DNA of 64,000 bases from positions 91,452 to 155,451 of the forward strand of contig JBJEGD010000026.1 of the NCBI GenBank assembly GCA_051874735.1. The letters are read 5' to 3'. Within the stretch, counting starts at the first letter, position 1, and each line of letters begins with the position of its first letter. The notes below the pieces were generated by a model. That model ran no database searches. It was not told the DNA's origin and saw only the letters and a list, made by a program, of their open reading frames with translations. Below are positions 10,011 through 45,105 of this stretch, piece after piece. The position numbers and the translations under genes are program-made. This DNA is from Candidatus Bruticola sp. (GTDB lineage: Bacteria; Vulcanimicrobiota; Xenobia; Xenobiales; Xenobiaceae).

Positions 10011-10025
10011 TTTTAGGGTATAAAT

Positions 10026-10739: not shown

Positions 10740-10740
10740 G

Positions 10741-26886: not shown

Positions 26887-29800
26887 ATGAGGAATGCACT
26901 CGGACATGTCTTGTCAGCAGCAGTGCTTGTAGGTAGTTTTGGGGCTTCAGTTCCTGCCTTTGCAGATAGTCCATCCGGAAATGCTGCGGTCAATACTGCT
27001 GAGCCTTTACCGGCTGCAGTAAATATGGGATTCAGCTTGGAAGCCGATTCTGCGGCTGCTCCCTACGTACATGGTTCTCAGACATCCTCTTTAACTAGTC
27101 AGACTGACAGTTGCGAGTACGTTCAGCCGCATATAATTCAGTTGGTAGCGACTGATAAAGGAGACACTGAGCTGGTTGATTCTGCGGCGATTGCTAGCGG
27201 TGCGGCAAACAGTAGCTGTTCGACTAGTGAACTTAGCACTTCAGAGAAAGATGCTACAGTTTCAACGTCTTCGGCTGTTTCTGCAGATGAGAGCAAAACT
27301 ATAAAAACAAAAACTAAGAGCTCAACTTCCGAACTAAAAAAAAGTAAAGCTAGGCTAAATAAGAGCAGAGCTGCGCGGCGTAAGAATAAAGTTAATTCTA
27401 CCGCCTTGGGAAAGCATTCTAGCCCTGAAAAGGTTGAATCTGCTGTTGCTAATTCTGATAATGGTGCGGTGGCAATAGATAGCAGCGAACCCATAAAAAG
27501 TAAGACTGAGTTTTCCGCTGAACTGTCAGATAAAACGGATCATGTTCAGACTTCCTCCAGCAGTGAACCTGCTGTCGAGGCTAAAGCCGCTTCTTCTGTT
27601 GAGCAAGAGTCTGTGCCAGTATCTACGTACTCCGCCAGCAAAAACAACGGTGATAACGTTTCTTCCGCTCTTGAAGAGAATAGCGCTGCTGCAGAACAAA
27701 AAGTTGCTCCTGCCGCCGATGAAACAAAAAGCCAGGTGGCAGATGAGGGTACGAAAAAGGCTGCAGCTTCGATCTCTCCTATTTTTAGCGGTACGGTTGA
27801 GGCTATAACTGATTCATCTTTGCGTATTTTCGGTATAGGTGCCAATGGTGAACCGCTTAGCCTCGATTTTATTGTCGATGCTAATAGTCAGATGGCTGAG
27901 GGGATAAAAATAGGCGACAGTTTATCTGTTTATTATGAAGTTTCTGAAAGCGGTGGTTTCAGAGTAACTTCGGCTAGGTATCTATCAGGTGAAGCTCCCA
28001 AGAATGTTTTCCCCGGAGATATCCCTTCTGAACTGCTCGACAATAATGATGTAACTGCAAAAGACGAGACTGATACTACCAACGAAGCGGATATACCTAA
28101 GGTCGTCAGTATTGAGGTTGAGGGCAATAAAACCGTTTCTTCAGAGGAAATACTGCAGATTATTTCCACCCGTATCGGTGACCCTTTGTTAGAACCGCGT
28201 ATCCGCCGCGATATGCAGGCTATCTACGACAGTGGATATTACACTGATGTACGTTTAGATACACGCTACACTTCAGATGGCGTCCGTGTGATCTTCCGGG
28301 TTTTGGAAAATCCTGTAGTTGATGAAATAGCTATCGAGGGTAATAGCGTAGTCCCTAGCGAAAAGCTTCGCTCTCTTATGCAACTTGAAACGGGTAAAGT
28401 GCTCAATACTCGTACTTTGCAAAATGATCTACAATCAATCAACAAATATTACAACGAAGATTTAGGCTATACTATTAGTCCTTCCCACGTTACCAAACTC
28501 GATTTTAATAGCGGTAAACTTACGTTTACCTTAGTTGATGGCATTGTAGTTAAAGAAGTTAAGGTTGAGGGGGTTACCGTTTTCCCTCAAGACCAGATCG
28601 CTTCTATGATCACGCTCAAGCCGGGCGATCTGTTTAATCGTAATACTCTGCGCGATGATACAGAAAAAATTTCTGCTCTCTACGATGAAAAACAGTACAT
28701 ATTAGATACTATTAAACCTTCGGTTGATGTCGAAACTGGTGTAGTTACGGTCAGTGTTGTTGAAGCCGTACTTCAGGAAATTAAGCTGGCTTGGACTGGC
28801 ACTAGTGCTACTAAGCACCGTACCAAAGACGACACTGTGCTGCGCAATATCCGTACTAAGCCTGGCGAGGTGATGCGTCGCGATCGCATACAAAAAGATT
28901 TGGAACGTCTTAATAACTTAGGTCTTTTCAAAAAAGTAGAGCCTGAGGTCGAGCCGGGATCTGCGCCAGGTCAAGCCGTTTTAGTTTTAAATATTGAAGA
29001 ACAGAAAACTGGTTTAGCTACGGTCGGTGTCGGTTATGCTGGAGGCGGATCGGGAGCTGTTCGCCCTGGTATAACTGGAGCGATTTCTTATTCTGAGCGC
29101 AACTTATTCGGAGAAGGTAAGCAGTTTTCCATAAACTTGCAGCGAGGTGCTCAGATCGGTGCGTATAGTATTTCTTATTACGATCCAGCCATTAACTCTG
29201 CTCAAGATTCTATTGGCGTATCTGCTTACTATAACAGCGTAGACGACTTGGAACAGCAGGTGACCGGAGCTGATTATGGCACTTACGCTTATTACGATCA
29301 GGAAGTGTACGGCGCCACTGTTACTTACGGCCATCCTTTCTCCGATGACCTTCGCGGTTTTGTCACTTTGCGTCATGAAACTATAAATTTAACTATGTCT
29401 GGTAAATCTCTGTATGTACCAGTTGGCTTGGGTAAAGGTGATTTGAACGCTATTGGTTTGTCTACTTTATATGACACTCGCGATGACGTCTTCAGCCCTC
29501 ACAAAGGTAGTTATGCTAATGTGGCCCTTACTTTTGCTGGTTTTGGGGGAGACTATAGTTACAATAAATTTGTTGTAGAAGGACGCCACTATGTGCCCTT
29601 AACTAAGCGATCTACTTTGGCTTTGCGCGGTATGTACGGAACTGTGGGCAATGGGGCTCCCGCGTCTGAATATTTTTATGCTGGCGGTACTGACACTTTG
29701 CGTGGCTATCAAGATAACTCAATGTTCGGAAACAAAGTTGTCCTTCTGAATGCTGAATACCGTTTCCCCATTGGAAATATTAAGATGCTCAGCGGCGCTG

Positions 29801-29979
29801 TGTTTGTTGACGCCGGCAATGCCTGGATCTCCGGCTACAAGTCGAGTGAACTGTATACCGATGCTGGTGTTGGTCTGCGCATAGTATTTCCTAACCTCGG
29901 TTTGGGTGTTATTCGTATCGATTATGCTTTCGGCAAAGATGGATCCCGCTCCAGTATAGGTATAGGTCAGTCATTCTAG
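26887..29979 (+). CDS. bamA: Omp85-family outer-membrane protein assembly factor BamA. It has a roughly 380-aa Ser/Ala/Glu-rich N-terminal extension, three POTRA domains and a C-terminal beta-barrel.
   Basis: Signal peptide, then POTRA-like segments (VVSIEVEGNKTVSSEEI…) and the bacterial surface-antigen barrel ending …GIGQSF. Confidence 0.85.
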   Translation: MRNALGHVLSAAVLVGSFGASVPAFADSPSGNAAVNTAEPLPAAVNMGFSLEADSAAAPYVHGSQTSSLTSQTDSCEYVQPHIIQLVATDKGDTELVDSAAIASGAANSSCSTSELSTSEKDATVSTSSAVSADESKTIKTKTKSSTSELKKSKARLNKSRAARRKNKVNSTALGKHSSPEKVESAVANSDNGAVAIDSSEPIKSKTEFSAELSDKTDHVQTSSSSEPAVEAKAASSVEQESVPVSTYSASKNNGDNVSSALEENSAAAEQKVAPAADETKSQVADEGTKKAAASISPIFSGTVEAITDSSLRIFGIGANGEPLSLDFIVDANSQMAEGIKIGDSLSVYYEVSESGGFRVTSARYLSGEAPKNVFPGDIPSELLDNNDVTAKDETDTTNEADIPKVVSIEVEGNKTVSSEEILQIISTRIGDPLLEPRIRRDMQAIYDSGYYTDVRLDTRYTSDGVRVIFRVLENPVVDEIAIEGNSVVPSEKLRSLMQLETGKVLNTRTLQNDLQSINKYYNEDLGYTISPSHVTKLDFNSGKLTFTLVDGIVVKEVKVEGVTVFPQDQIASMITLKPGDLFNRNTLRDDTEKISALYDEKQYILDTIKPSVDVETGVVTVSVVEAVLQEIKLAWTGTSATKHRTKDDTVLRNIRTKPGEVMRRDRIQKDLERLNNLGLFKKVEPEVEPGSAPGQAVLVLNIEEQKTGLATVGVGYAGGGSGAVRPGITGAISYSERNLFGEGKQFSINLQRGAQIGAYSISYYDPAINSAQDSIGVSAYYNSVDDLEQQVTGADYGTYAYYDQEVYGATVTYGHPFSDDLRGFVTLRHETINLTMSGKSLYVPVGLGKGDLNAIGLSTLYDTRDDVFSPHKGSYANVALTFAGFGGDYSYNKFVVEGRHYVPLTKRSTLALRGMYGTVGNGAPASEYFYAGGTDTLRGYQDNSMFGNKVVLLNAEYRFPIGNIKMLSGAVFVDAGNAWISGYKSSELYTDAGVGLRIVFPNLGLGVIRIDYAFGKDGSRSSIGIGQSF

Positions 29980-30175: not shown

Positions 30176-31171
30176 ATGTCTGAAGTCAATTTGAGTAAAT
30201 CTGCTGACAACACTGCAGATGAAGCTGTTAGTGAGTCAGCTACTCCTTCTGGCGGAAACAAGAAAATTGTTGGCGTAGTTGTTGCTGTAGCTGTTTTAAT
30301 AATTATCGGTATTGGAACTTGGATGTTCCTCAGTCCTAGCGGTATGATGTCTTCTCCTGCTAAAAAAGTAGGCTGTATAGACGCTTCAGCTATTTATGCT
30401 CTCGATGAGTTTAAAAACGCTGAAAAGCAGATCGCTGATTTTGCTGAAGCTAAAAACAAAGAATTTGAAAAAGCTGTCAGTGAAAAAAATGGAAAAGAAG
30501 GTTCTGAGACTGAGCTCCAGCTGCTTTATAACAAGCTTCAAGGTGAAGTTGAGGTTAACCGTAACAAAATTATTCTTCCTTTGAATAATCGTGTCTCTGC
30601 AGCTATCGCTTCCGTATCTGCTGGAAAAGGGCTTAATGTAGTCCTGGATAAGCGCGTAGTCGTATGTGGAGTTCCCGATATCACTGAAGATGTAAAAAAA
30701 CTTTTTCAACAAAAAGGCGAGCTGAAAGTTCCTTCTGAGGAAGATACTAGCGATTCTCCGGTGGCTTATTTCGATCAGGGAATAGTTCGCAAATTGAAAG
30801 TGTTCGGTGAAGTTGATATCCGCTTGAGTCAAGCCCGCGCTGACATGATGCGTGAGTATGAGAAAAAAGCTCCCAGTCTTTCAGCTTCAGAGCGTGAGGC
30901 CCTGCAGCGTGAGATGTCCGCTCGTTTTGAGGCTATTAGTCAGCAACAGTATGCTCCTCTCTATCAGAAGGTCAATAATTCTGTAAATAAAGTTGCCAAA
31001 GATTTAGGCATTTCGCTGGTACTGAACAAACAGACTGTGATGTACGGCGGGCGCAATATTACTGATGAAGTTATTGATACTTTTAATGCTAGTCTGAACA
31101 CAGATTCATCTTCTGCTGAAGCTGCAGACAGCAAAGCTGCAGACTCTAAGAATACTGAAGCTGCTAAGTAA
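30176..31171 (+). CDS. Skp/OmpH-like periplasmic chaperone, membrane-anchored, with two tandem OmpH-like halves.
   Basis: N-terminal transmembrane segment. Both halves end with a …VLDK/VLNK…DITE/ITDEVI… Skp-like tail. Strong Shine-Dalgarno AAGGAGG. Confidence 0.6.
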   Translation: MSEVNLSKSADNTADEAVSESATPSGGNKKIVGVVVAVAVLIIIGIGTWMFLSPSGMMSSPAKKVGCIDASAIYALDEFKNAEKQIADFAEAKNKEFEKAVSEKNGKEGSETELQLLYNKLQGEVEVNRNKIILPLNNRVSAAIASVSAGKGLNVVLDKRVVVCGVPDITEDVKKLFQQKGELKVPSEEDTSDSPVAYFDQGIVRKLKVFGEVDIRLSQARADMMREYEKKAPSLSASEREALQREMSARFEAISQQQYAPLYQKVNNSVNKVAKDLGISLVLNKQTVMYGGRNITDEVIDTFNASLNTDSSSAEAADSKAADSKNTEAAK

Positions 31172-31184
31172 TTGAGGTGTTTTT

Positions 31185-32624
31185 ATGCAGTTTTTTTCTG
31201 TCCCTAAATTCAAAAGTACAGGCGTATGGCTGGGGGTCGGCAGCATTCTAGTCGGCGCCGCTGTGGCTGTTCAAGTAGGCTTAGCTGAGGTTGCCTGTGC
31301 TGAAGGGACTGAGCCGAAAAAATCTGCTGCTCTTGATAAGGCTGATGATAAGTTCACTGAGTTAGCTGTAGTTGACTTCGATAAGCTGTTGAAAGATCGT
31401 CCCGATTATGAGCGCATCAATCAACTCGATGAACAGATTCGTTTACTGCAACAGGAACTAGATTTTTTGCCTTTAGCTGACCACAGGCGTAAAGTAGATT
31501 CTGGACGTAAACGTATGGAACGCGAGGTTGAAAAGGCTCGCAATGAACTTCAAGCTGAGTCTGAGCGTATTGGACGGGAATTGAAAAATTTTCGCAATGC
31601 ACTTTCTTCTCAGCTTGAACGGGAAAGTAAAGCTCTCAATGAACATTACCAAAATGTTTTACGTCAGCGTATTGCCGCTCTGACTCCCAAAGCTCAGCCG
31701 CAGGTTCCTGAAGATGTTCGCAAGCGTATGGATAGTTTCCTTAGCGATTTGGCTGGAGTGCGTCAGCAGCGACTCTCTGCTAAGCGTTTAGAACTTGAGC
31801 GCCTTATGCAGAATAATTTGGAAAGTGCCAGAGCTTCCATGGATGAGCGCTTAGCAGCCTACGACAATTCTCTTATGGAAGAGAATCAAGCGCAGCGCGT
31901 TAATCTTCAGCTTCAGTTGCAAACGGCAGCTAATGCTGAAGAAGAGTCGTCCATTCAAGATAAGCTGAGTGCTTTGAGTGATGAAGAAACGGCTAAAAAA
32001 GCGGCCAAACGCGATGAACTTAGTGCTGAGTATCAAGCGCTTGAAGCTTCAGAGAGAGCTAATGTTAACTCAAAAATGAAAGCTTTTGAAGATTCTTTAG
32101 ATAAGGAAACTTCTGCTAAAGCGGCTGCTGAACGGGAACGTCTCTTAAAGACGGTGTCAGTTCCTTCTCCCCAGGCTAACAAAGCTGATATTGAGGCCCA
32201 GATCGAAAAGATTAAGGCGACTATCAACGCTGAAATGGAAGCGAAGAAGGCTTCCATGACGGCGGCCATGCAGCAAAAGGCTGAGGAAGCCCAGCGCAAT
32301 ATGGAAAAAAAGCAGGCTGAACTAGAAAAGCGTCTCATGGCCACTCAGAAGCAGCTTGAAGCGATGGTTAAAAATTCCCAAAATGATGTCAGCGATGAAA
32401 CTCGCAAAAAGATGGATGACATTAAGGCCAAGATAGAAGATCTGCAGAAACAGCGCACTGAATTGCACGATTCCATGGCGGCTGATCTGCGCAAGGTTAT
32501 CAGTAAGATAGCTGCAGAGCAGGAAGGGCAGCCTTCTGTAATAGGAACTTATGTAATGAATATTGACTGTTTGGATCTTACCGACAAGACTATGATCGCT
32601 TTGGAGAAAGAGGACCAGCATTAG
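31185..32624 (+). CDS. Giant coiled-coil Skp/OmpH-like protein (479 aa) with a signal peptide.
   Basis: About 400 aa of heptad-rich E/K/Q/R sequence. It ends in a Skp-like tail, VIGTYVMNIDCLDLTDKTMIAL. Confidence 0.45.
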   Translation: MQFFSVPKFKSTGVWLGVGSILVGAAVAVQVGLAEVACAEGTEPKKSAALDKADDKFTELAVVDFDKLLKDRPDYERINQLDEQIRLLQQELDFLPLADHRRKVDSGRKRMEREVEKARNELQAESERIGRELKNFRNALSSQLERESKALNEHYQNVLRQRIAALTPKAQPQVPEDVRKRMDSFLSDLAGVRQQRLSAKRLELERLMQNNLESARASMDERLAAYDNSLMEENQAQRVNLQLQLQTAANAEEESSIQDKLSALSDEETAKKAAKRDELSAEYQALEASERANVNSKMKAFEDSLDKETSAKAAAERERLLKTVSVPSPQANKADIEAQIEKIKATINAEMEAKKASMTAAMQQKAEEAQRNMEKKQAELEKRLMATQKQLEAMVKNSQNDVSDETRKKMDDIKAKIEDLQKQRTELHDSMAADLRKVISKIAAEQEGQPSVIGTYVMNIDCLDLTDKTMIALEKEDQH

Positions 32625-32633
32625 GAGGTCGCA

Positions 32634-33194
32634 GTGAAGAGAATTTTTTGGTGCGGAGCAGTTTGTGCGTTACTCACTGTCGGTGTTTTGTTGGCGTCAG
32701 GATGCAATACCCAGAATCAAAAAGCTATTATTCGCACTGGAACTATAAATAGCACTGTGGTGCTTCAGCAGGATGACAAGTATCAAGAATTATCGCGTCA
32801 GTACTTCGCTGAGCGCGTTAAAGCCAGTCAAGAAGTGCAGCGAATCGTCAAAGAAAATTCTGATGCCAACGGTGTTGTGAGTGATAAGTCTATTTATGAT
32901 AAGCTTATGAAAATTCAGAACGATGTAGAATCGAAGTGGCAGAAACGCACCGCCGACTATATAGATGCTAAAATGAAGAGTATGGAAGAAGCTGCTCAGA
33001 AGGTTGCAGTGGACAGCAAGCTCGATATCATTTTAATCGATTCCGATGATGTACCTACTGTAGAGTATGGCGGCCACGACGTTACAGCTAATGTTCTAGC
33101 TGCTATGCCCGGGTTCGCTGGCAAGTCTGAAGCTGAAAGTACTAGTGCTGAGACTGCAGCTGATTCTAAGCAGCCTGTGAATAACAGCAAATAG
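32634..33194 (+). CDS. OmpH/Skp-family lipoprotein.
   Basis: Lipobox LLASGC and an OmpH-like core. GTG start after AGGAGG. Confidence 0.6.
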   Translation: MKRIFWCGAVCALLTVGVLLASGCNTQNQKAIIRTGTINSTVVLQQDDKYQELSRQYFAERVKASQEVQRIVKENSDANGVVSDKSIYDKLMKIQNDVESKWQKRTADYIDAKMKSMEEAAQKVAVDSKLDIILIDSDDVPTVEYGGHDVTANVLAAMPGFAGKSEAESTSAETAADSKQPVNNSK

Positions 33195-33214
33195 AAATGC
33201 GGAGGATAAACAGG

Positions 33215-33688
33215 TTGAAGCATTCAAAGTTTATTAACTGTTTGATTTTAACGGCTGTAGGCGCCGCTCTGCTGCTGTCAGGGGGAGGATGCGCTAAGCG
33301 TTCACTTAAAGTAGGGGTGGTTAATACTGAGAGAATTATCAGGGAAAATCCCAAGTACATGGAATTGAATGTGGTTTTGTCTGATGAGCGGAACAAGTTG
33401 TTCTCGCAAATTCCCAGTAATGTCAACAGCATGTCTGGAGCACAAAAGAAAGCTTTGCAGGAAAAATTAGCTAAAGAGGCTGCTGAGCGTTCCAGTAAAT
33501 TTGACAAGCTTTACAATGAAAGCATGAAAAGCCTGCGTGAAGATATAAAAAAACAGGCTTCAGAAGTTGCTAAAGATAAAAATATCGACTTAGTGGTAGT
33601 TAATACCATAAATTATCCAGTAGTGCTTTATACCAGCGGCGATAATGTCACTTTAGATATTCTTCTCAAAATGGACGGAGCAAAATAA
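33215..33688 (+). CDS. OmpH/Skp-family (lipo)protein.
   Basis: TTG start 9 nt after GGAGG, preferred to the track ATG at 33197. Signal sequence ending LLSGGGC. OmpH-like tail DLVVVNTINYPVVLYTSGDNVTLDILL. Confidence 0.55.
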   Translation: MKHSKFINCLILTAVGAALLLSGGGCAKRSLKVGVVNTERIIRENPKYMELNVVLSDERNKLFSQIPSNVNSMSGAQKKALQEKLAKEAAERSSKFDKLYNESMKSLREDIKKQASEVAKDKNIDLVVVNTINYPVVLYTSGDNVTLDILLKMDGAK

Positions 33689-34402
33689 ATGGAACAGGGA
33701 CTCATACATACTAGCGCTTGTATTGATGTCTTCGCCTCTCTTGGAGAGGGATGCCGAGTCGGAGCTATGGCTGTTATTGAAAGTGGAGCCCAAATTGGCT
33801 GCGGAGCTGAAATCGGTCCTAAAGTTTATATCGGACGCAACGTTTCTATCGGTGAAAGAGCTGTTATAAAGTGCGGTGCTGTTATTATGGATGGCGTTGT
33901 TGTTGGCAGAGAAGCGGTAGTCGAGTCGGGGGCTGTTTTGGGAATGGATGGCTTTGGATATGTTTTTGACGGACAAAGCCATCGTAAAATTCAGCAAATA
34001 GGCAATGTTGTCATTGGGCAGGGAGCGAAAATTGGCGCTTGTTCCTGTATAGACAGGGCCGCTTCTGCTTCAACGGTCGTTGGCGATCATACTGAAATAG
34101 GTCATATGGTGATGGTCGGTCATAACAGCAAGATTGGCAGCGGGTGTCGCATTGGTGATCAGAGCGGTTTAACTGGTTCCTCTCTGGTCGGTAACGATTG
34201 TATCATCGGCTCTCAGTGTGGTATAGGTGTGCGTGTTGAACTTGGCGATGGCTGTGTGTTGCTAGATCGAGCCACGGCTATGCGCAAATATGAGCCTGGG
34301 CAGGTTCTGGCCGGACATCCAGGACGACCGGTGGCGGAGGTTCGCCGTGCAGAAGCGGCTTTTAATTTGCTGCCTAAACTTTTAAAAGATTATATTGAGT
34401 AG
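33689..34402 (+). CDS. LpxD-like UDP-3-O-acyl-glucosamine N-acyltransferase lacking the N-terminal uridine-binding domain. It has only the left-handed beta-helix and the C-terminal helix.
   Basis: Begins exactly where the beta-helix of canonical LpxD begins. Has the GFGY motif and the catalytic GHN His. Only 237 aa versus about 330–340. Confidence 0.65.
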   Translation: MEQGLIHTSACIDVFASLGEGCRVGAMAVIESGAQIGCGAEIGPKVYIGRNVSIGERAVIKCGAVIMDGVVVGREAVVESGAVLGMDGFGYVFDGQSHRKIQQIGNVVIGQGAKIGACSCIDRAASASTVVGDHTEIGHMVMVGHNSKIGSGCRIGDQSGLTGSSLVGNDCIIGSQCGIGVRVELGDGCVLLDRATAMRKYEPGQVLAGHPGRPVAEVRRAEAAFNLLPKLLKDYIE

Positions 34403-34613: not shown

Positions 34614-36458
34614 ATGAGAAAATATAATTTATGGGCCTTAATTTTGGCTTTTGTAGTCTTTTATTCCGCTGCTCTGTCATCTGCCTGGGCTGCTGATGTA
34701 ATGCTGGGAGGCCAGGTTATCTTTCGTATAAATGATGAGGATCAAGCAAAAAAAATATCCCAAAAAATTGAAGCTATGTTGCAGAGGGGGGCTTCTTCGT
34801 CTTCAATTAAAGTCGTACGTAAAGATATTGCTGTAGCCTCGGAGGGGCAAGATAAGCAAGATAAAGATGAAGGTAGCAAGGGAGGGGCTAAAGCGAAAAA
34901 ATCTGTTTATAAAATATTTTGGGGAAGTGAATTAGTCATTGAAGTGAATGACGAAATTGCCAAGCAGAATGCTTCTTCTCCAGAAGCTTTAGCTAATTTA
35001 TGGGCCTCCAATATGCGCAATGTCGTCGATATTGGCCTGTTGAATGTTGATGTTGCTAGAGTCGTTTTACCTATAGAGGCTGATAAGGTTATTTACGCTT
35101 CTGGTTTGGCAACCGGTCCTTTGAGTGCTGAAGAGACTTCAGGTATCGTTGATATTGATATCGATCAGGAAAACGGCCTTATTAAGATAAAAGGGCGCAG
35201 GGTTGGAAAGTCGTCTATCGTTATTAGCAAAGGGGTTGCCTCCGTTTCCGTTTTTGTGCAGGTGAAAGATTGGGCCGGCAAACTTCCTCAGACGGTTAAT
35301 GTTGAAGTAACTGGCAATCCTGCACAGATTGATGACGTTTCCCAGGCGGTTATGCTTTCCATAGCGGCTAATACTTTCGTTCAGCCAGGCTGCAGTGTTT
35401 ATGTTGATGATTCCAACTTTAAACCGATTCCGGTGAGTAAAGGCGACAGTATGCGCTTAAGCGTGCCTGTGGGTATAAATGCTTCGGAAGATTATTTTGC
35501 GCTTCGCGGCAATGTTAATGTTGTAGTTAGCAATATAGAAGCTCCTGTAGTTGAGCAGAATCTGCTTCTAGTCAGCAATCGGCCGGAGCGTGTCAGCACA
35601 GATGGAGTATTAATGAAGTATAACTTCAAGAGACGTGAGCCCAGTCGTCTTATGTTCTCCCATCTTAATGCTTCCGAAAAGAATCGTTATTTGTGGATAA
35701 ATTTAGCTAATTTAAATGACGAACCGATAAAGATTGTTATCAGTCGCACTTCTGCTGGACCTGAGCGCAGCGAAATTTATGTCGGCCAAACGGCTGCCAA
35801 GCGCTTTTTAGAAAATTTGGCCAGTCGTTCCGGCTATATCATTACTCTTCCGCCCAATTCTGCTTTAGAGCTCTGTTCTTATGTGATGCGTCCTGAAGCT
35901 TTGGTAAGTGGATTTATAAATTTCCAAATTTTGGAAGGTACTAGCGCGACCGTTGAAGTGCGCAGTTCATTAAATCCTAATGCTAACGATGGACGTCCTC
36001 TGCCAGAAATAGGGGCCCCTTTTAATCCTTTCAAAATACATCCTCACGGAGTTTTTGCTCAGCCTTATTTTGAAAATGAAGGTGAATTTGTTATAGGTGG
36101 CAGTCCTTTAACTTTTCGTTATGGTGAGAGTCCTTGGCTGATTGATTTTGAAACTGGGCTGCCCAACACTGGCAATTTCGGGGTTTTGTATAAATCTTTG
36201 GTAGAATTAAAAAATCCTACTAAGCGTACAAAAACTGTGGGACTTTACTTTACGCCTTTGTCCGGCCCTGGCGGTGCTAACTTCCTGATAGGCAATTCTG
36301 TTTATCAGGCAGTTTTCCGCAAAAAAGGTGATGAAGTACTTGTAGCTAAAATCGAACTCTCGCCAGAGTCTAGCAGTATAATTGAAATTGTCACTTTACC
36401 TGAGGCGACTTCCTGTTATCCTGCCCAGTATGAATTGCGTGAACTGGACGGGCGCTGA
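34614..36458 (+). CDS. Large secreted protein of unknown function (614 aa) embedded in the lipid A cluster.
   Basis: Clear signal peptide MRKYNLWALILAFVVFYSAALSSAWA. No recognisable domain. Confidence 0.6.
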   Translation: MRKYNLWALILAFVVFYSAALSSAWAADVMLGGQVIFRINDEDQAKKISQKIEAMLQRGASSSSIKVVRKDIAVASEGQDKQDKDEGSKGGAKAKKSVYKIFWGSELVIEVNDEIAKQNASSPEALANLWASNMRNVVDIGLLNVDVARVVLPIEADKVIYASGLATGPLSAEETSGIVDIDIDQENGLIKIKGRRVGKSSIVISKGVASVSVFVQVKDWAGKLPQTVNVEVTGNPAQIDDVSQAVMLSIAANTFVQPGCSVYVDDSNFKPIPVSKGDSMRLSVPVGINASEDYFALRGNVNVVVSNIEAPVVEQNLLLVSNRPERVSTDGVLMKYNFKRREPSRLMFSHLNASEKNRYLWINLANLNDEPIKIVISRTSAGPERSEIYVGQTAAKRFLENLASRSGYIITLPPNSALELCSYVMRPEALVSGFINFQILEGTSATVEVRSSLNPNANDGRPLPEIGAPFNPFKIHPHGVFAQPYFENEGEFVIGGSPLTFRYGESPWLIDFETGLPNTGNFGVLYKSLVELKNPTKRTKTVGLYFTPLSGPGGANFLIGNSVYQAVFRKKGDEVLVAKIELSPESSSIIEIVTLPEATSCYPAQYELRELDGR

Positions 36459-36660: not shown

Positions 36661-37500
36661 ATGTGCAGAGCGCAGCGTACTTTGGCGAAAGAAGTTTCCT
36701 TCGAAGGAGTAGGGATTCATACTGGGAGAGCGAGTCACCTAACTATTAAGCCGGCTCCTGTCGATCACGGTCTCGTTTTTCTTAGTTCTGGAGAGTATAT
36801 CCCTGCTACCTATGAGTACGTTATTTCTACAAAGCGCTCTACAACGATTGGTAAGGGACAGGTCGCGGTAAATACTATCGAGCATTTAATGGCCGCTTTT
36901 GGAGGTCTTTCTGTGGATAATGCTCTTATAGAGATAGAAGGGCCGGAAGTTCCTATTTTAGACGGTTCTGCTTTGCCTTTTTGTCAGGCTATGGAAGAAG
37001 CAGGTATAGTTAATATCAAAGGCAGTGAAGTAGAAGATTATTATCTGAGCGAGCCCATTTTTGCTGCAGAAGGGGACAGTTTAGTTTTGGCTATGCCCGA
37101 TTCCCAATATAATCTTGAAGGAGCTGTCAGCTACAACAGTCCTCAAGTAGGTATTCAGCGATATCGTTACTGCGGATATGACAACTTTGTGACTCATATA
37201 GCTCCTGCTCGTACTTTTGGTTTTTGGTCTGAGGTAAAAACTCTCTTAGAAAACGGATTAGGGCAAGGTGGCGATCTGTCTAATGCTTTAATTTATGATC
37301 GTCCTGGTTTTAATGCTGCAGAAAATCAGCGTTTTGTCAATGAACCGGTGCGTCACAAAATTTTAGATTTAGCTGGTGATATTTGTCTGTTAGGTCGTCC
37401 GCTGTGTGCTTTTGTTTTGGCCGTTCGGGCTGGTCATAAATTGCATGTAGAATTCGTTCGCAAAATCGCTGAGGAGATGAAAAAAAATGCTGAATACTAA
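36661..37500 (+). CDS. lpxC: UDP-3-O-acyl-N-acetylglucosamine deacetylase.
   Basis: N-terminal QRTL…GVGIHTG and a C-terminal HKxLD…G motif. Size 279 aa. Confidence 0.9.
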   Translation: MCRAQRTLAKEVSFEGVGIHTGRASHLTIKPAPVDHGLVFLSSGEYIPATYEYVISTKRSTTIGKGQVAVNTIEHLMAAFGGLSVDNALIEIEGPEVPILDGSALPFCQAMEEAGIVNIKGSEVEDYYLSEPIFAAEGDSLVLAMPDSQYNLEGAVSYNSPQVGIQRYRYCGYDNFVTHIAPARTFGFWSEVKTLLENGLGQGGDLSNALIYDRPGFNAAENQRFVNEPVRHKILDLAGDICLLGRPLCAFVLAVRAGHKLHVEFVRKIAEEMKKNAEY

Positions 37501-37912
37501 AGATATATTGCACAGGATTAATTACAAAAGTCCTCTTTTTTTTGTTGATATTGTTAACGAGTTAGAGTTTCCTAAAATCTCTGGTTATAAAAATGTGACT
37601 ATGAGCGAGCCCCATTTCGCTGGACATTTCCCAGGCAAACCCATTATGCCTGGAGTACTACAAATGGAAGCTTTGGTACAGATTTGCCGACTTCTCTATA
37701 TAGGGAATGAAGAGGCTCCTATTAAAGTAAAAGAGCTCGATTTAGTTGGAGTTAAAAAATTTAAGTTTAGAACTCCTGTTGTTCCAGGAGATCGCCTCGA
37801 TCTTTATGCTGAAGAAATTGAGCGTAACAACGAAAATATAGTGCTATCTGTTAAAGCTTGCGTTGGAGATAATGTCGCTTGTGAAGGAATACTTTCTTTC
37901 AGTTGGCAATAA
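37487..37912 (+). CDS. fabZ: 3-hydroxyacyl-ACP dehydratase FabZ.
   Basis: Hot-dog fold motifs HFAGHFPGKPIMPGVL. Overlaps the lpxC stop by 14 nt. Confidence 0.9.
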   Translation: MLNTKDILHRINYKSPLFFVDIVNELEFPKISGYKNVTMSEPHFAGHFPGKPIMPGVLQMEALVQICRLLYIGNEEAPIKVKELDLVGVKKFKFRTPVVPGDRLDLYAEEIERNNENIVLSVKACVGDNVACEGILSFSWQ

Positions 37913-38028
37913 AAGGCGAACGCACGACCGTTTGCGGCTAGCTGTAGGAAATTTGCCATATACAGACGAAATTATAAACCGTTTTGTGTTCGCTTTTGCA
38001 TAGAGACAAAAATTGGAGGATAAGCATT

Positions 38029-38967
38029 ATGAAGCCGATTAAAGTTGGCGTGGTCGGCATTGGTAGTATGGGGAAAAACCATGCTCGAGTGTGCGCCGAA
38101 CTACCTCAAATTGAACTTACAGGCATGGTGGATCTCGATGAAGCCAGAGTCGCCCCTTTAGCTCAGCAGTACGGCACACAGTATTATAAAGATTATAAGA
38201 GTCTCTATGGCAAAATCGACGCTGTAGTTATTGTTGCACCTACACCGCTTCACTATCAAATCGCTCAAGATTTTTTGGAACAGGGCGTTCATGTCTTGGT
38301 AGAAAAGCCCATTACTGTAGAGGTAAGCGAGGCTAAACGGTTAGTGACTTCCGCTAAGGAAAAAAATCTTGTTCTGCAGGTAGGTCATTTGGAGCGTTTC
38401 AATCCAGCCGTAATAAAGCTTAAGCAGATGGTGAGCAAACCTGTGTTAATAGAATGCCACCGCCTTTCTGGGCCTACTACTCGCAGTCTCGATGTCGGTA
38501 TTATTTGGGATTTAATGATCCACGATTTTGATATACTTCTCAGTTTATATAAATCTCCAGTAGCCGAAATCCATGCTATGGGGACTTCTATCTATTCTAA
38601 ATTTGAAGATGTAGCTCACGTGCAAATGCGGTTTGAATGTGGGGCTGTAGCCAGTTTGGTAGCTAGTCGCAATTCCGGAGAAAGGAAGCGCAGTCTCAAA
38701 ATTACTGAAGATACCGGACGAGTTTTGTCTCTCGATTTTATTAACCAAACTTTAGTTATTTCTCGTCCTGGCCCCGATGGGCGTCCCCTAGATTTGGAGC
38801 CAGTTCACATCGAGAAAGAGGAACCTCTACGTTTGGAACTCAGCAATTTTGCAGATTGTGTGATTAATCACAAGGAACCTGTTGTATCCGGTGAGGATGG
38901 CAAGCGAGCTTTGGAATTAGCTGTTCACGTTTTGGAGAATATGCAAAAAATTACGCTTTCTAAGTAA
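38029..38967 (+). CDS. Gfo/Idh/MocA-family NAD(P)-dependent oxidoreductase. GnnA-like position between fabZ and lpxA.
   Basis: MKPIKVGVVGIGSMGKNHA Rossmann N-terminus and a C-terminal Gfo/Idh/MocA domain. Start set at the ATG after GGAGG. Confidence 0.75.
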   Translation: MKPIKVGVVGIGSMGKNHARVCAELPQIELTGMVDLDEARVAPLAQQYGTQYYKDYKSLYGKIDAVVIVAPTPLHYQIAQDFLEQGVHVLVEKPITVEVSEAKRLVTSAKEKNLVLQVGHLERFNPAVIKLKQMVSKPVLIECHRLSGPTTRSLDVGIIWDLMIHDFDILLSLYKSPVAEIHAMGTSIYSKFEDVAHVQMRFECGAVASLVASRNSGERKRSLKITEDTGRVLSLDFINQTLVISRPGPDGRPLDLEPVHIEKEEPLRLELSNFADCVINHKEPVVSGEDGKRALELAVHVLENMQKITLSK

Positions 38968-39017
38968 AGCAGCAATAAAAATTTTTCCGCTTAAAGTACA
39001 GAGAGGAGAGCCAAGAG

Positions 39018-39827
39018 GTGATTCATTCCAGCGCTATAGTACATCCCGGGGCACGCATCGGTGAGGGAGTAGAAATCGGACCTTTTTCTATTATCGGAGA
39101 AAATGTAGAAATTGGAGACGGAACTAAAATTATGTCTTCTGTCGTCATAGATGGATGGACAACTATAGGCAAAAATAACAAAATTTATCCGGGTGTATCT
39201 ATTGGTCTGGCACCTCAGGATTTCAGTTATAAAGGGCAGCGTTCATTTGTAACTATTGGTGATAATAATGAGTTCCGTGAATATGTGACTATTCATAGGG
39301 CTGCCGATGAAGATGGTATTACTTCTGTGGGTAGCGGCAATCTGCTTATGGCGAATGTACACATCGCTCATAACTGCCATATTGGTAGTCAAATTACTAT
39401 GGCTAATTATGCTGGTTTGGCTGGTCATACTGTAGTAGAAGATCAGGCGGTATTAGGTGGGCTTGTAGGTATCCATCAGCACACCCGCATCGGTCGTTTG
39501 TGTATGGTAGGCGGATGCTCCAAGATAAATAAAGATTTGCCGCCCTTCAGTATTGTCGATGGTAATCCTTGTCGTCTCTTTGGTATGAATTTCCGAGGCA
39601 TGCGGCGCCGTGACATTTCTAAGGAAAGTCGTTTAGCTGTTCATAAAGCTATCAATATTTTGGGCAGTTGTGGACTGACCTTAGACGCCGCTATAGAACG
39701 CATAGACAGTGAGTTGGAGCATACCCCTGAAATTGAACATTTCCTGACTTTCCTGCGCGGTGATTCTCATATGGGAGTTCTCAATAAAGCCGGCAACGTA
39801 GGGGCGAGAGCTCACAGTAACGCTTAA
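39018..39827 (+). CDS. lpxA: Acyl-ACP–UDP-GlcNAc (or GlcNAc3N) O-acyltransferase LpxA.
   Basis: Hexapeptide-repeat N-terminus SSAIVHPGARIGEGVEIGPFSIIG and the typical C-terminal helical domain. Confidence 0.9.
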   Translation: MIHSSAIVHPGARIGEGVEIGPFSIIGENVEIGDGTKIMSSVVIDGWTTIGKNNKIYPGVSIGLAPQDFSYKGQRSFVTIGDNNEFREYVTIHRAADEDGITSVGSGNLLMANVHIAHNCHIGSQITMANYAGLAGHTVVEDQAVLGGLVGIHQHTRIGRLCMVGGCSKINKDLPPFSIVDGNPCRLFGMNFRGMRRRDISKESRLAVHKAINILGSCGLTLDAAIERIDSELEHTPEIEHFLTFLRGDSHMGVLNKAGNVGARAHSNA

Positions 39828-39838
39828 TTGGTGCAGCT

Positions 39839-42286
39839 TTGACTGAAAATAGTCAGCAACAATCATCTGCTTATCCTCAGTTGACGGTTGCGATAATCGC
39901 CATAGAGCCTTCTGCCGATCTTCATGGAAGCAATTTGGCTAGGGCTCTTTTGGCGATTAATCCGCATCTAAAACTGGTCGGCGTAGGCGGATCGCATATG
40001 GCCGCGTCGGGAGTCAGTCTGTGGTTAAGGACCACAGACATGGCAGTTATTGGTCCCGGCGGGGCTATTGCTCGTTTGCCTAAATATATATGTTACTATT
40101 TGTACGTGCGCAGGCATTTGCTTAAGGAACATCCTCACCTCAGCATTTTAATAGACTGCCCCGCCGTTAACATGCGTTATGCTGGTCTTTTGACTCGCTA
40201 TGGCTATCATTCTGTTTATTACTTTCCCCCTTCTGCCTGGACAACCAGCGAAGTGCGTCTTAGACAGATTTTTAGCCGCACAGATAGGGTAATTTGTACC
40301 TTCTTGAGCAATGCCGAAAATTATCGCCGTCTGGGTATGGATGTAGATTTCTTCGGCCATCCTCTTATCGATATGCCCGAGTTAGGAATTTCTGCAGAAG
40401 AAGCTAAAAACAAGTTGGGGCTGGTAGGCGAAAATATTTTGGCTTTACTTCCGGGCAGTCGTGCTTCAGAAATAAAGTATCTATTGCCGATTTTTTTAGA
40501 AATAGTTGCTAAGTTGCATCAAGAAATAGAAAATTTGCAGGTACTTGTACCTTGTGCAACTCAGGCGCTTCGCAGGCAAATAGTTGCCTATATGGGGGAT
40601 AGGTTCCCTTATGTGCGTGTTTTAAATGGGCAGTCTCGTTTAGCCCTTTTAGCTTGTCGAGCAGCGTTGATGAGCTCTGGCACAGCTAGCCTGGAAGCTG
40701 CGATATTAGGCGCCCCAATGGTTCTGTCTTATAAACTTTGTCCCTTCGATGCTGTTATAGGTAAGTTCCTGATTTGGAGTGGTTTATTAAAAATTGAGCA
40801 TATCGGGTTGCCCAGTTTGGTCGCTGGACATCGCATTGTTCCAGAGTTTGTTCAAGATGAAGTTTCACCTGAAAATATTATCCCTCATTTGCGCAATTTT
40901 ATGCGAGATACTCCTGAGCGGTGCCAAATAAAACAAGATCTTTTAGATATGAGGAAGTCCATGGGCGCTCCTGGAGTAATTACCAAGATAGCCTCTTCTT
41001 TATATAGTCGCATTGAGAGCAGTGCTGCTGAAAGGATGGCTGAACCTTTCGACATTGTTATAACATCTAATTCTCCTGGAGAGGTGTCCACGTGGGTGCG
41101 ACGCACTGTTGCTCAGTTGGAGGTTAAAAACAAAGGGCAGTTTAGAGTTATAGTAGCGTTAGTTCCATGTCCTTATGCTTCCGGAGCTGAAGCTGAAGTC
41201 GCCGCTTCTCTGCCAGGCGTTTCCATTGTTCTGACGCCTAGTCAGACTGTGCGTTTAATGTGCGGCATGTTCAACGATTTTGAGCTGCGTAAAAAGGGAG
41301 TAGTAGTATTTTTAGGCGGTGATCTTATTCACGCTAAAATTTTGGCTTGGCGTTTAAAATATCGCTCTATAGCCTATGCAGCTAGATACAACAGGCTAAT
41401 CTACTATTTTGATAAAGTCGCTGCTTCAGATATTTCACTGGCCTCTGAATTATTAGAAGCTGGAGTTAATGAAGTTGTTAATATAGGTAATTTAAGTATT
41501 GATGGGGTTATTTCTGAAGTTGATAGGGAAGCAGCTGATAAAGTATCCCGTAGAACTGGCTTGAAGATTGGCATTTTCCCAGGATCGCGTTTTCTGCATA
41601 CTAAGATCGCTCTAGGAGTGTTTTTGCGTGTAGCTGCTCTAATAAAAACGCGTCACCCTGAGGTTGAATTTGTCCTTTCTGTATCGCCTTTTCTTTCCCC
41701 AGCTCGGCTGGAATCGGCACTTTGTAATCCTTTTAGTTTGGGGCTTCCGGTAGCTAAGGGTAAATTGCTCAGTGCTGATCGCATTGCAGTTGAGTGTATG
41801 TATGAAGATGAACAGGCTGCAGGACGCAGTTTTGAAGTTGAAGTTTTGTGGGGCCATCCTTATCAAGCTATTGCAGAAATAGATATGGCACTTACCATTC
41901 CGGGAACGAATACTGGAGAGTTGGGGTGTTGCGGCAAACCTATGGTAGTAGGACTTTCTGCTGATGCTTCCCTGCCCAGAGGAGGTTTGGGCGGCTTATT
42001 TGAAAGGATGCCAGTTTTATCAAAACTTAAGAGTTATTTGCGCTTGCGTTCTTATGCGCGTCACGGTTTCGCTGCGATCCCTAACCGTATTGCTTCTAGA
42101 GCTATCGTTCCTGAAGTTTTAGTAAAAAAAGATACGTCTGTGCTGGCCCAGCCTATTTTAGAGTGGATTGAAACTCCTGAGAAGTACGCCCGTGTTTCCC
42201 AAGATTTAAAAGACACTATGAGAACGACAGAGGGAGCGGGCAAGCGCATGGCTGAGTTGATCCTGGGTTTGGTTGATTCTAAATAA
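39839..42286 (+). CDS. lpxB: Lipid-A-disaccharide synthase fused in tandem to a second GT19 (LpxB-like) domain (815 aa).
   Basis: Residues 1 to about 390 carry the LpxB motifs LLPGSR and SSGTASLEAAILGAPMVLSY. Residues about 400–815 repeat them as IFPGSR and IPGTNTGELGCCGKPMVVGL. Confidence 0.8.
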   Translation: MTENSQQQSSAYPQLTVAIIAIEPSADLHGSNLARALLAINPHLKLVGVGGSHMAASGVSLWLRTTDMAVIGPGGAIARLPKYICYYLYVRRHLLKEHPHLSILIDCPAVNMRYAGLLTRYGYHSVYYFPPSAWTTSEVRLRQIFSRTDRVICTFLSNAENYRRLGMDVDFFGHPLIDMPELGISAEEAKNKLGLVGENILALLPGSRASEIKYLLPIFLEIVAKLHQEIENLQVLVPCATQALRRQIVAYMGDRFPYVRVLNGQSRLALLACRAALMSSGTASLEAAILGAPMVLSYKLCPFDAVIGKFLIWSGLLKIEHIGLPSLVAGHRIVPEFVQDEVSPENIIPHLRNFMRDTPERCQIKQDLLDMRKSMGAPGVITKIASSLYSRIESSAAERMAEPFDIVITSNSPGEVSTWVRRTVAQLEVKNKGQFRVIVALVPCPYASGAEAEVAASLPGVSIVLTPSQTVRLMCGMFNDFELRKKGVVVFLGGDLIHAKILAWRLKYRSIAYAARYNRLIYYFDKVAASDISLASELLEAGVNEVVNIGNLSIDGVISEVDREAADKVSRRTGLKIGIFPGSRFLHTKIALGVFLRVAALIKTRHPEVEFVLSVSPFLSPARLESALCNPFSLGLPVAKGKLLSADRIAVECMYEDEQAAGRSFEVEVLWGHPYQAIAEIDMALTIPGTNTGELGCCGKPMVVGLSADASLPRGGLGGLFERMPVLSKLKSYLRLRSYARHGFAAIPNRIASRAIVPEVLVKKDTSVLAQPILEWIETPEKYARVSQDLKDTMRTTEGAGKRMAELILGLVDSK

Positions 42287-42356
42287 TATGAAAATTCCTA
42301 ATGAAAATTGCCAAAATATTGCTACTCCTTTTATTTTCAAGTGGCGAGGCTTGATT

Positions 42357-42941
42357 ATGGCAGTAGTGACGGCTATCATACTGGCTGCTGCCAAGCCAAC
42401 TTTAGTTACCTGCTGCTGGGGAATTGGCTTTGTACTTTTAGGAGAGCTGTTGCGTTCATGGGCTTTGGGCTGGACTGGAGAACATACACGTAGTCAGGAA
42501 TTAATGGCGTCTTTTTTAGTTACTGGCGGTCCTTATAAATACATACGCAATCCACTGTACTTAGGCAATATTTTAAACGGATTTGGGGTTATGGTTGCTG
42601 CTTCTGGAGCTATGTCGTATTTGGGAACGGCTGCTTTGTGGGCTTTTGGTCTTCTATCTCTTTATATGGTTTATGCTTCATGTATAATCGCTGAAGAAGC
42701 TTTCTTGGCTATGCGTTTTGGTGATCTCTTCTTCCGCTACAGAGCAGTTACGCCGACCATTGTACCGCGTTGGGGAGATTATCTCGATTTTATAAGCAGT
42801 TTTTTCAATTTCTCTTCCTGTACAGATGTTCAATATGAAGGGAGAGGCTTCTTCTCTTGGCAATCTTTAAAATTTGAATATAGTACTTGGGGATGGATAA
42901 TTGCTGTTTGGTCTTGTTTATTTATAAAAGCTTTCATGTAA
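42357..42941 (+). CDS. ICMT/PEMT-family membrane methyltransferase-like protein (LmtA-like candidate).
   Basis: Multi-transmembrane protein with an RNPLYLG motif of the isoprenylcysteine carboxyl methyltransferase family. Start chosen at the ATG 7 nt after GAGG. The track start at 42273 overlaps lpxB. Confidence 0.5.
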   Translation: MAVVTAIILAAAKPTLVTCCWGIGFVLLGELLRSWALGWTGEHTRSQELMASFLVTGGPYKYIRNPLYLGNILNGFGVMVAASGAMSYLGTAALWAFGLLSLYMVYASCIIAEEAFLAMRFGDLFFRYRAVTPTIVPRWGDYLDFISSFFNFSSCTDVQYEGRGFFSWQSLKFEYSTWGWIIAVWSCLFIKAFM

Positions 42942-44232: not shown

Positions 44233-44234
44233 AT

Positions 44235-45080: not shown

Positions 45081-45105
45081 GCAACTTAGAGATGACTTAT
45101 AACAA

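Follow-up and report, generated by a model that had tools for sequence, protein, structure and literature searches.

Introduction

LpxD is an essential and much-studied antibiotic target that is regarded as a homotrimer with three identical active sites. Francisella and Leptospira have two versions of the protein, LpxD1 and LpxD2, both of which are full-length, catalytically complete homotrimers that differ in acyl-chain preference. Here we analyze the lpxD locus in a 64,000-nucleotide stretch of DNA (the window; contig JBJEGD010000026.1, positions 91,452 to 155,451 of the forward strand) from Candidatus Bruticola, a genus of Candidatus Xenobia in the phylum Vulcanimicrobiota/Eremiobacterota. 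The gene at the canonical lpxD position encodes a protein of 237 aa without the N-terminal uridine-binding domain (UBD), and a second gene on the opposite strand encodes an LpxD-like protein of 327 aa that has the UBD and has lost the catalytic His. We call them G-type ('His-face') and U-type ('UBD/Asp-face'), respectively. On balance we lean, if only slightly, towards the view that the short gene is the real lpxD of this clade and encodes one half of an enzyme, which would be an obligate heterotrimer with a composite active site. The analysis covered 64 kb of this genome and flanks of up to 10 kb in relatives.

Structures of the C. trachomatis and E. coli enzymes place each LpxD active site between two subunits (PMC6286764). 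In E. coli, the UBD residues F41, N44, and Y47 together with D232 come from one chain, and H239, Q236, G257, H276, and the repeat-5 loop from the adjacent chain (PMC6286764). In C. trachomatis, the uracil, the ribose and part of the pyrophosphate touch F43, Y49, N46, E32, and E34 of chain B, and the catalytic His247, with Q248 and H284, belongs to chain A (PMC6286764). In E. coli, chain B provides D232 and chain C provides Q236 to hold the beta-hydroxyl of the acyl chain, with G257 and H239 also coming from chain C, and the pocket that takes up the acceptor's 3'-acyl chain is made of a helix of the subunit that gives the N-domain and the repeat-5 loop of its neighbor (PMC6286764). Two residue labels in PMC6286764 do not match the E. 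coli sequence: 'R193', where V193 stands, and 'Q240', where N240 stands; we take these residues to be R293 and N240.

A short LpxD at the canonical position

The short protein consists of a left-handed beta-helix followed by two short C-terminal helices, and has no UBD. The NCBIfam model for LpxD, NF002060, matches residues 5-232 at profile positions 103-332 of 345 (E 4e-61, 207 bits; cut-off 207), and the equivalog model TIGR01853 is covered from position 94 to 323 of 325 (193.6 bits; cut-off 242.5). The score equals the LpxD subfamily cut-off and stays under the equivalog cut-off. LpxA models score 79 and 76 bits, and all remaining families score at most 78 bits. Pfam finds hexapeptide repeats only, with no match to PF04613 (the LpxD N-domain) or to PF13720 (the LpxA C-terminal domain). 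The AlphaFold2 (AF2) model has a pLDDT of 96.5, and its top 25 Foldseek matches in the PDB are all LpxD, the best being 2iu8_B (TM 0.95, rmsd 1.8).

Residues 7-223 align with residues 101-318 of E. coli LpxD (3eh0) with one single-residue gap. The LpxD-specific motifs GFGY, HxKIPQxG, IDRA, and GHN are all present. The catalytic H145, G163, which corresponds to the oxyanion Gly257 of E. coli, and F89 of the GFGY motif are invariant in the short family, and the Arg that contacts acyl carrier protein (ACP) is kept (R199, E. coli R293). Where canonical LpxD has Asp-Asn in its K-I-D-N-L motif, however, the protein reads Gly138-His139. The coordinates of these and other features are collected in Table 1.

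The stop codon of the preceding skp gene abuts the ATG of the short lpxD in the same frame, and a Shine-Dalgarno-like GGAG lies 8 nt upstream of the ATG. Since the skp open reading frame (ORF) occupies the DNA right up to the start, an N-terminal domain has no room there. A profile made from 86 canonical UBDs was searched, with filters off, against all stop-to-stop fragments in the six frames of the window. It found nothing 5' of the short gene, and its sole match was the N-terminus of the U-type protein (E 4e-11). By tblastn, likewise, no UBD is found upstream. A frameshift or sequencing error hiding the domain was rejected on these grounds. The sequence-only reading of this locus had described an LpxD homolog at the canonical skp-lpxD position, made up of the beta-helix and C-terminal helices only but with GFGY and the catalytic His, starting immediately after the previous stop, and with an N-terminal domain that is absent rather than missed. 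Profiles, fold and synteny, the 3eh0 alignment, the junction, and the two UBD searches bear out each of these statements. A scan for promoters and terminators around the gene gave background levels only.

The nearest database relatives of the short protein are all short as well. The complete ones have 237-244 aa and 46-79% identity, with two partial entries in addition, and the next matches are ordinary LpxDs of 335-370 aa with at most 43% identity. The gene order in relatives is bamA, four skp-like genes, short lpxD, a gene for a protein of ~600 aa, lpxC, fabZ, a Gfo/Idh/MocA dehydrogenase gene, lpxA, and lpxB. The skp stop abuts or overlaps the short-lpxD start in three loci (L010, L012, and L058), and the two are at most ~40 nt apart in L001 and L003. 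A divergent short form of 198 aa shares the Xenobia-type gene context. The ratio of nonsynonymous to synonymous substitution rates (dN/dS) is 0.075-0.17 in pairs with unsaturated dS. By position, the short gene is the lpxD ortholog of a whole clade, and it is under purifying selection. Because its length, motifs, and position are kept down to 46% identity and dN/dS is low, it is not a decaying copy. The labels 'paralog' and 'decaying copy', both used in the sequence-only reading, do not survive the comparison of orthologous loci.

Other short entries differ in nature. P0097, P0251, and P0260 are genuine UBD-less forms that group with the proteins having Gly at the position of E. coli D232 (Gly232 forms), and P0097 has Xenobia-type synteny. 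P0284 and P0308, which have the canonical IDNL motif, may be fragments or have mis-called starts. P0325 was considered as an independent short LpxD and rejected; it is a contig-end fragment, and its cluster includes a 352-aa member. In the RUG807-type lineage (L008, 19071-20987, and L018) the cluster is interrupted 5' of lpxC: there, lpxC is followed by a gene for a SAM hydroxide adenosyltransferase instead of the ~600-aa gene and the short lpxD, which must be elsewhere in these genomes. The window has a SAM_HAT gene of its own.

A conserved pseudo-acyltransferase

The U-type protein has a UBD, a beta-helix that misses the repeat-5 loop, and a long C-terminal helix. It scores 164 bits with the NCBIfam LpxD model (cut-off 207), matches PF04613 weakly, and shares only 23% identity with the short protein. 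Its AF2 model (pLDDT 94.9) has a full-length LpxD fold, with a TM of 0.78 to 4e79/2iu8. Alignment to solved and canonical LpxDs shows that a 20-residue deletion takes out the GFGY/HxKIPQxG (KIPQ) loop, that Lys220 stands at the position of the catalytic His (…RIDNLACINKE…), and that the oxyanion Gly-Ser motif is missing. The His position is occupied by K, R, E, D, Q, S, or A among 13 diverse U-type members with identities down to 29%. In the same members G32, T46-F47 (T40-F41 in E. coli), and D213-N214 are invariant and D34 is nearly so. The dN/dS of 0.06-0.14 (unsaturated dS) indicates purifying selection. The U-type protein is a conserved pseudo-acyltransferase, not a normal LpxD. A gene with an LpxD-type N-domain does exist 11 kb away on the other strand, as had been noted from the sequence, but it is not the catalytically intact full-length LpxD that it was taken for. 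A further protein, P0398 (331 aa, 13 cluster members), is a divergent U-type-like form in which KIDNL is kept, and both the catalytic His and the uracil-stacking Phe (…MVMAEE…) are lost.

The operon that contains the U-type gene converges on the lipid A operon and is conserved in L006-L009 and L014-L030. L006 and L008 also show the overlap between the PmbA/TldD-like gene and the U-type gene; a gap of ~3 kb separates the two genes in deeper lineages. Upstream of the PmbA/TldD-like gene is a gene for a TPR protein. The PmbA/TldD-like, TPR, and U-type proteins may form a regulatory proteolysis module for lipid A synthesis.

Reciprocal losses in the two proteins

Residues were first compared between 86 canonical LpxDs and 11 short-family proteins. 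The D232 position is Asp in all 86 of the former and Gly in all 11 of the latter. At N233, Asn is found in 82 of the 86 canonical proteins and the short family is variable; Q236 is replaced by Met in the short family. The H276 position holds His (68), Asn (11), or Arg (6) in the canonical set and Arg in 10 of the 11 short proteins. In the E. coli LpxD sequence that provides the numbering, residues 101-318 were checked against the 3eh0 alignment, and the N-terminal numbering is consistent with the published one (PMC6286764).

In an unbiased comparison, all positions with a conservation of 85% or more among 100 canonical LpxDs were scored in 18 G-type and 15 U-type proteins. The G-type retains G175-V201 (the repeat-5 loop), D216, R217, A218, T223, H239, N240, G254, G257, S258, G272, and L323-P324, all of which are lost or deleted in the U-type. 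The U-type retains the UBD, V207, E208, A211, G228, K/R230, D232 and N233 (each in 15 of 15), and L234, which the G-type has lost. Judged from these alignments, the losses are reciprocal and neither copy is complete. The loss patterns correspond to the two sides of the known inter-subunit active site of LpxD.

Co-occurrence and evolutionary history

The window contig itself holds both types. A metagenome scan anchored on the second LpxB-like gene of the clade led to other contigs that carry both: L063 has a 244-aa G-type and a U-type on one contig, and L065, L066, and L068 each have on the same contig a U-type and a G-type with an N-terminal remnant of ~70 residues. Assembly JAFTAM01 holds a short form (L013) and a U-type (L021), and for the pairs P0002/P0126 and P0243/P0396 agreement in the length of the longest contig suggests shared contigs. 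Searching GTDB species genomes for U-type patterns yielded 20 U-type loci, all with Xenobia/UBP9-type synteny, some of them in metagenome-assembled genomes (MAGs) labelled otherwise. Most of these loci adjoin a PmbA/TldD-like gene and are near the lpx operon. Counts of the U-type family are lower bounds, since the word pre-filter of the profile search limited the recovery of deep members. None of the fetched loci bearing a canonical LpxD has a U-type gene, and the named Xenobia/Bruticola matches in protein searches are short forms or U-type only, with no canonical LpxD among them.

A profile search run exhaustively over 1.84 billion representatives recovered the Gly232 forms P0242, P0243, P0245, P0251, and P0260, together with many canonical LpxDs and fragments. 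All Gly232 forms cluster together in a neighbor-joining tree without support values. Some members of this group have degenerate N-domains of ~94, 81, 68, and 37 residues that lack the Phe of F41, and others have none. The series looks like stepwise decay of a UBD made redundant by loss of the Asp face, with the order of the steps being tentative, and the graded remnants are consistent with relaxed selection on a redundant UBD. A contrasting type of LpxD duplication is seen in L037 (a Vicingaceae MAG, Bacteroidota), which has a canonical LpxD and a second, 310-aa LpxD homolog (9794-10834 and 14239-15168). The second homolog keeps Asp-Asn and His, and has Asp at the N240 and H276 positions.

A proposed composite active site and its alternatives

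We propose that lpxD was duplicated in Candidatus Xenobia and that both copies would then have decayed reciprocally. The copy at the canonical locus (G-type) would have kept the His face, which comprises the catalytic His, the oxyanion Gly-Ser, the repeat-5 GFGY loop, and His276, and would have lost the Asp face and afterwards the UBD. In the second copy (U-type) the His face would have been lost, and the UBD and the Asp face (Asp232-Asn233) would have remained. The two proteins would co-assemble into an obligate heterotrimer, in which a complete N-acyltransferase site would arise only where a G-type His face meets a U-type UBD/Asp face. At the composite site, acyl-ACP would serve as the donor for acylation of the UDP-3-acyl-GlcN (or GlcN3N) intermediate at its 2-amine. 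The residues that are split between the paralogs are exactly the two halves that separate subunits normally contribute. In a mixed trimer one complete site would be restored, and there would be one site per trimer in a 2:1 and a 1:2 assembly alike. AF2 predicts an LpxD fold with confidence for both proteins, and their beta-helices match in length. We infer from these patterns that the two proteins associate and jointly provide LpxD activity. That Xenobia LpxD is an obligate heterotrimer of reciprocally degenerate paralogs, with a single composite site in each trimer, is in our estimate an evenly balanced proposition. Literature searches returned no UBD-less or heteromeric LpxD and no description of Xenobia lipopolysaccharide.

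Several points weigh against the heterotrimer. The two genes lie in separate convergent operons 11 kb apart, and one genome has them on different contigs. In Bruticola-type genomes the U-type gene is translationally coupled to the PmbA/TldD-like gene, and its product could have a separate, for example regulatory, role. P0398 may mark a second stage of divergence, and calls for caution about a heteromeric model. Beyond the covered regions there may be a canonical lpxD elsewhere in these genomes, or G-type genomes that lack a U-type. The history rests on a simple neighbor-joining tree and the roles of the chains on a single review (PMC6286764).

The best-surviving alternative, which we regard as possible but clearly less probable, is that the short protein is a UBD-less LpxD that works by itself. 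Its homotrimer would acylate the UDP-sugar alone, with the nucleotide bound through the beta-helix as in LpxA. Arg182 would replace His276 at the pyrophosphate and the Asp232Gly change would alter recognition of the beta-hydroxyl of the acyl donor. The U-type would be non-catalytic, for example a sensor of UDP-acyl-sugar for the adjacent PmbA/TldD-like protease. Consistent with this, the short protein has all catalytic residues of the His face and the ACP-contact Arg, a conserved Arg has been gained at the H276 position, and the U-type gene sits in another operon, coupled to the PmbA-like and TPR genes. The F41A change in E. coli LpxD affects mainly Km and LpxA functions without a UBD (PMC6286764), so a UBD-less enzyme working alone, like LpxA, is conceivable. 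Such an enzyme, however, leaves unexplained why conservation of the whole Asp face (E208, A211, G228, K230, D232, and N233) is lost in the short form, why exactly the Asp-face positions stay invariant in a U-type that has no catalytic His, and why the two types are jointly present wherever both could be checked.

An LpxD2-like role, as raised in the sequence-only reading, is improbable. A normal LpxD would do the housekeeping, and the short protein would be a second N-acyltransferase for another acyl chain or acceptor. This reading would require a canonical lpxD elsewhere in the genome, and no sign of one was seen. There are indeed two LpxD homologs within one region, the D232G and Q236M changes at sites of beta-hydroxyl recognition could mean a different donor, and the operon has a GnnA-like gene, a hint of a GlcN3N backbone. 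However, the one further LpxD homolog within the 64 kb has Lys for the catalytic His, no oxyanion Gly-Ser motif, and a deleted loop, and with the U-type being a pseudo-acyltransferase the LpxD2-like reading loses its basis. The canonical position is held by the short gene, not the long one, in every relative, no canonical LpxD is found among the named Xenobia/Bruticola matches, and LpxD1 and LpxD2 of the Francisella type are both full-length. What stands of the earlier interpretation is the identity as LpxD and the absence of the UBD; paralogy, decay, and the LpxD2 role do not, and the change at D232 and the reciprocal losses had been missed.

Two readings are effectively excluded. It is very improbable that the gene encodes a non-LpxD hexapeptide acyl- or acetyltransferase: the source record names both the G-type and the U-type only as 'DapH/DapD/GlmU-related' protein and the score is under the TIGR01853 cut-off, but the scores are 207 and 194 bits with LpxD models, 79 with LpxA, and at most 78 with others, the top 25 structural matches are LpxD rather than other transferases, and the four motifs and the lpx synteny are kept. 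Least credible of all is a pseudogene, a truncation, or an assembly or annotation artefact: the protein is shorter than every canonical LpxD and some other short entries are contig-end fragments (P0325), but the frame is intact and preceded by a Shine-Dalgarno-like motif, no UBD remnant is found in any frame, a pseudogene is rejected on dN/dS and conserved length, and the 237-244 aa length and the gene junction recur in independent assemblies from many samples.

Comparison with related systems

The short protein resembles LpxD (E. coli 3EH0/4IHF, C. trachomatis 2IU8) in the beta-helix and C-terminal helices, His-Asn, Gly-Ser, the GFGY/HxKIPQxG loop, the ACP-contact Arg, and its position in the order bamA-skp-lpxD-lpxC-fabZ-lpxA-lpxB. 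Unlike LpxD, it has no UBD, has lost Asp232 and Asn233, has Arg for His276 and Met for Q236, and co-occurs with a complementary inactive paralog; its C-terminal helix is ~12 residues below the canonical median. With LpxA it shares the two-part architecture of beta-helix and C-terminal helices, the absence of an N-terminal nucleotide domain, and a site between subunits, but its sequence and structure group with LpxD and there is a separate genuine lpxA in the operon. The LpxD1/LpxD2 systems of Francisella and Leptospira also have two LpxD homologs per genome, whereas here neither copy appears complete.

Mixed trimers of active and degenerate paralogs are found among gamma-carbonic anhydrase/CA-like proteins of mitochondrial complex I in plants and protists (e.g., 7AR9), in which only some interfaces are complete. 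They share the beta-helix trimer with sites at interfaces, and differ in their zinc chemistry, their eukaryotic organelle, and the lack of a nucleotide domain. One 7ar9 chain is a weak sequence match to the short protein in a PDB alignment search; the analogy is one of principle, not functional homology. Duplication followed by loss of catalysis in one copy has given obligate hetero-oligomers in the small and large subunits of ADP-glucose pyrophosphorylase, in GMPPA/GMPPB, and in eIF2B gamma/epsilon. Such pairs keep one fully catalytic subunit, whereas the losses in Xenobia appear reciprocal, with no complete site in either protein.

Other genes of the window

Table 1. Positions of the genes, motifs, and residues discussed in the text; residue numbers are those of the window proteins unless stated otherwise.
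Feature	Position	Strand	Remarks
Fused sugar-nucleotide enzyme, 1079 aa	1206-4445	+	
SAM_HAT gene	5422-6198		
BamA	26887-29979	+	
Four consecutive skp-like genes	30176-33688	+	
Last of four tandem skp/OmpH-like genes	33197-33688	+	directly 5' of short lpxD; Pfam OmpH
skp-lpxD junction	33677-33691	+	GGAG 33677-33680, skp TAA 33686-33688, lpxD ATG 33689-33691; read from sequence
Short lpxD, G-type ('His-face'), 237 aa	33689-34402	+	ORF, LpxD profiles, PDB alignment, AF2 model, orthologs
GFGY, residues 88-91	33950-33961	+	elongated loop of beta-helix repeat 5; F89 = E. coli F183; by alignment, invariant in short family
Gly138	34100-34102	+	E. coli Asp232 position; Gly in 18/18 G-type, Asp in 100/100 canonical LpxDs
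His145-Asn146	34121-34126	+	E. coli H239-N240 (catalytic base); by alignment, invariant in G-type and canonical
Arg182	34232-34234	+	E. coli His276 position (pyrophosphate ligand); Arg in 10/11 short-family members
614-aa protein	34614-36458	+	between short lpxD and lpxC; N-terminal signal-like hydrophobic segment, no Pfam match
Rest of lipid A operon	36661-42286	+	collinear in relatives
lpxC	36661-37500	+	
fabZ	37487-37912	+	
GnnA-like Gfo/Idh/MocA oxidoreductase	37984-38967	+	best match UDP-GlcNAc 3-dehydrogenase, 275 bits (cut-off 450)
lpxA	39018-39827	+	
lpxB-lpxB' fusion, 815 aa	39839-42286	+	residues 15-383 genuine LpxB (TIGR00215, 249 bits), then second LpxB-like half
PEMT/ICMT-type membrane methyltransferase	42273-42941	+	end of lpx operon; conserved in most relatives
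Convergent operon with U-type gene	43027-47964	-	PmbA/TldD-like, U-type, 190-aa protein, metallophosphoesterase, TIGR03492 glycosyltransferase
Operon tail	43027-45678	-	190-aa protein and the next two genes
LpxB-related glycosyltransferase, 401 aa	43027-44232	-	TIGR03492
Metallophosphoesterase, 281 aa	44235-45080	-	
U-type ('UBD/Asp-face') LpxD-like pseudo-acyltransferase, 327 aa	45671-46654	-	profiles, PDB alignments, AF2, family alignments
DNLACINK	45995-46018	-	Asp213-Asn214 (E. coli D232-N233), then Lys220 at His position; family alignment
Phe47	46514-46516	-	corresponds to uracil-stacking F41 of E. coli; no variation in 13 diverse U-type sequences
PmbA/TldD-like gene	46645-47964	-	only C-terminal domain detected; overlaps U-type start by 10 nt
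TPR protein gene	48828-50597		upstream of PmbA/TldD-like gene

In the Xenobia-type loci that extend over this position, the slot is taken by orthologs of the 614-aa protein (582-610 aa, 50-82% identity). The protein is a clade-specific component of the lipid A/outer-membrane cluster and is probably either secreted or associated with the outer membrane. The match of the Gfo/Idh/MocA oxidoreductase suggests GnnA and a GlcN3N-type lipid A backbone. A GnnB-like aminotransferase was not found among the annotated ORFs, and in L002 and L009 the Gfo/Idh/MocA gene is fragmented by frameshifts or assembly errors. The two halves of the lpxB fusion are separate adjacent genes in Xenobium-type relatives (L001, L003, L005, and L027), and homologs of the second half, at 23-48% identity, occur on many other metagenome contigs. 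The methyltransferase at the end of the lpx operon weakly matches LmtA of Leptospira, a lipid A 1-phosphate methyltransferase (43 bits; cut-off 325), which hints at a methylated lipid A phosphate. Genes of the kind found in the operon tail directly follow lpxB on the same strand in the deeper lineages L005 and L027. Since no LpxH or LpxI gene was recognized among the annotated ORFs of the region, the metallophosphoesterase is a candidate UDP-2,3-diacylglucosamine hydrolase (LpxG-like).

Further upstream, BamA has a Ser/Ala/Glu/Lys-rich N-terminal extension of ~400 residues before its POTRA domains; in the Xenobium type BamA has ~830-860 aa and most of the extension is missing. The set of four skp-like genes is conserved across the clade. 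Two of their products are recognizable as OmpH; no Pfam family covers the coiled-coil protein (479 aa) or the lipoprotein-like protein (186 aa) of the set. Near the start of the window, a 1079-aa protein unites steps of sugar-nucleotide synthesis in an unusual fusion, with sugar-1-phosphate nucleotidyltransferase, hexapeptide beta-helix, phosphoglucomutase/phosphomannomutase, and DUF5752 domains.

Implications

The hosts of these genes are uncultured gut and rumen bacteria of the Eremiobacterota/Vulcanimicrobiota, among them a baboon-named genus and MAGs from the Hadza gut and goat rumen. The GnnA-like and LmtA-like genes, the extra LpxB-like genes, and the metallophosphoesterase together hint at an unusual lipid A in these bacteria. 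Annotation based on domains could wrongly call lpxD absent or duplicated in such genomes. If true, the heterotrimer would be, to our knowledge and within the literature searched, the Raetz lipid A pathway's first heteromeric enzyme. Its existence would mean that the inter-subunit site of LpxD can be divided between two genes, and it would provide a clear natural case of subfunctionalisation inside one active site.

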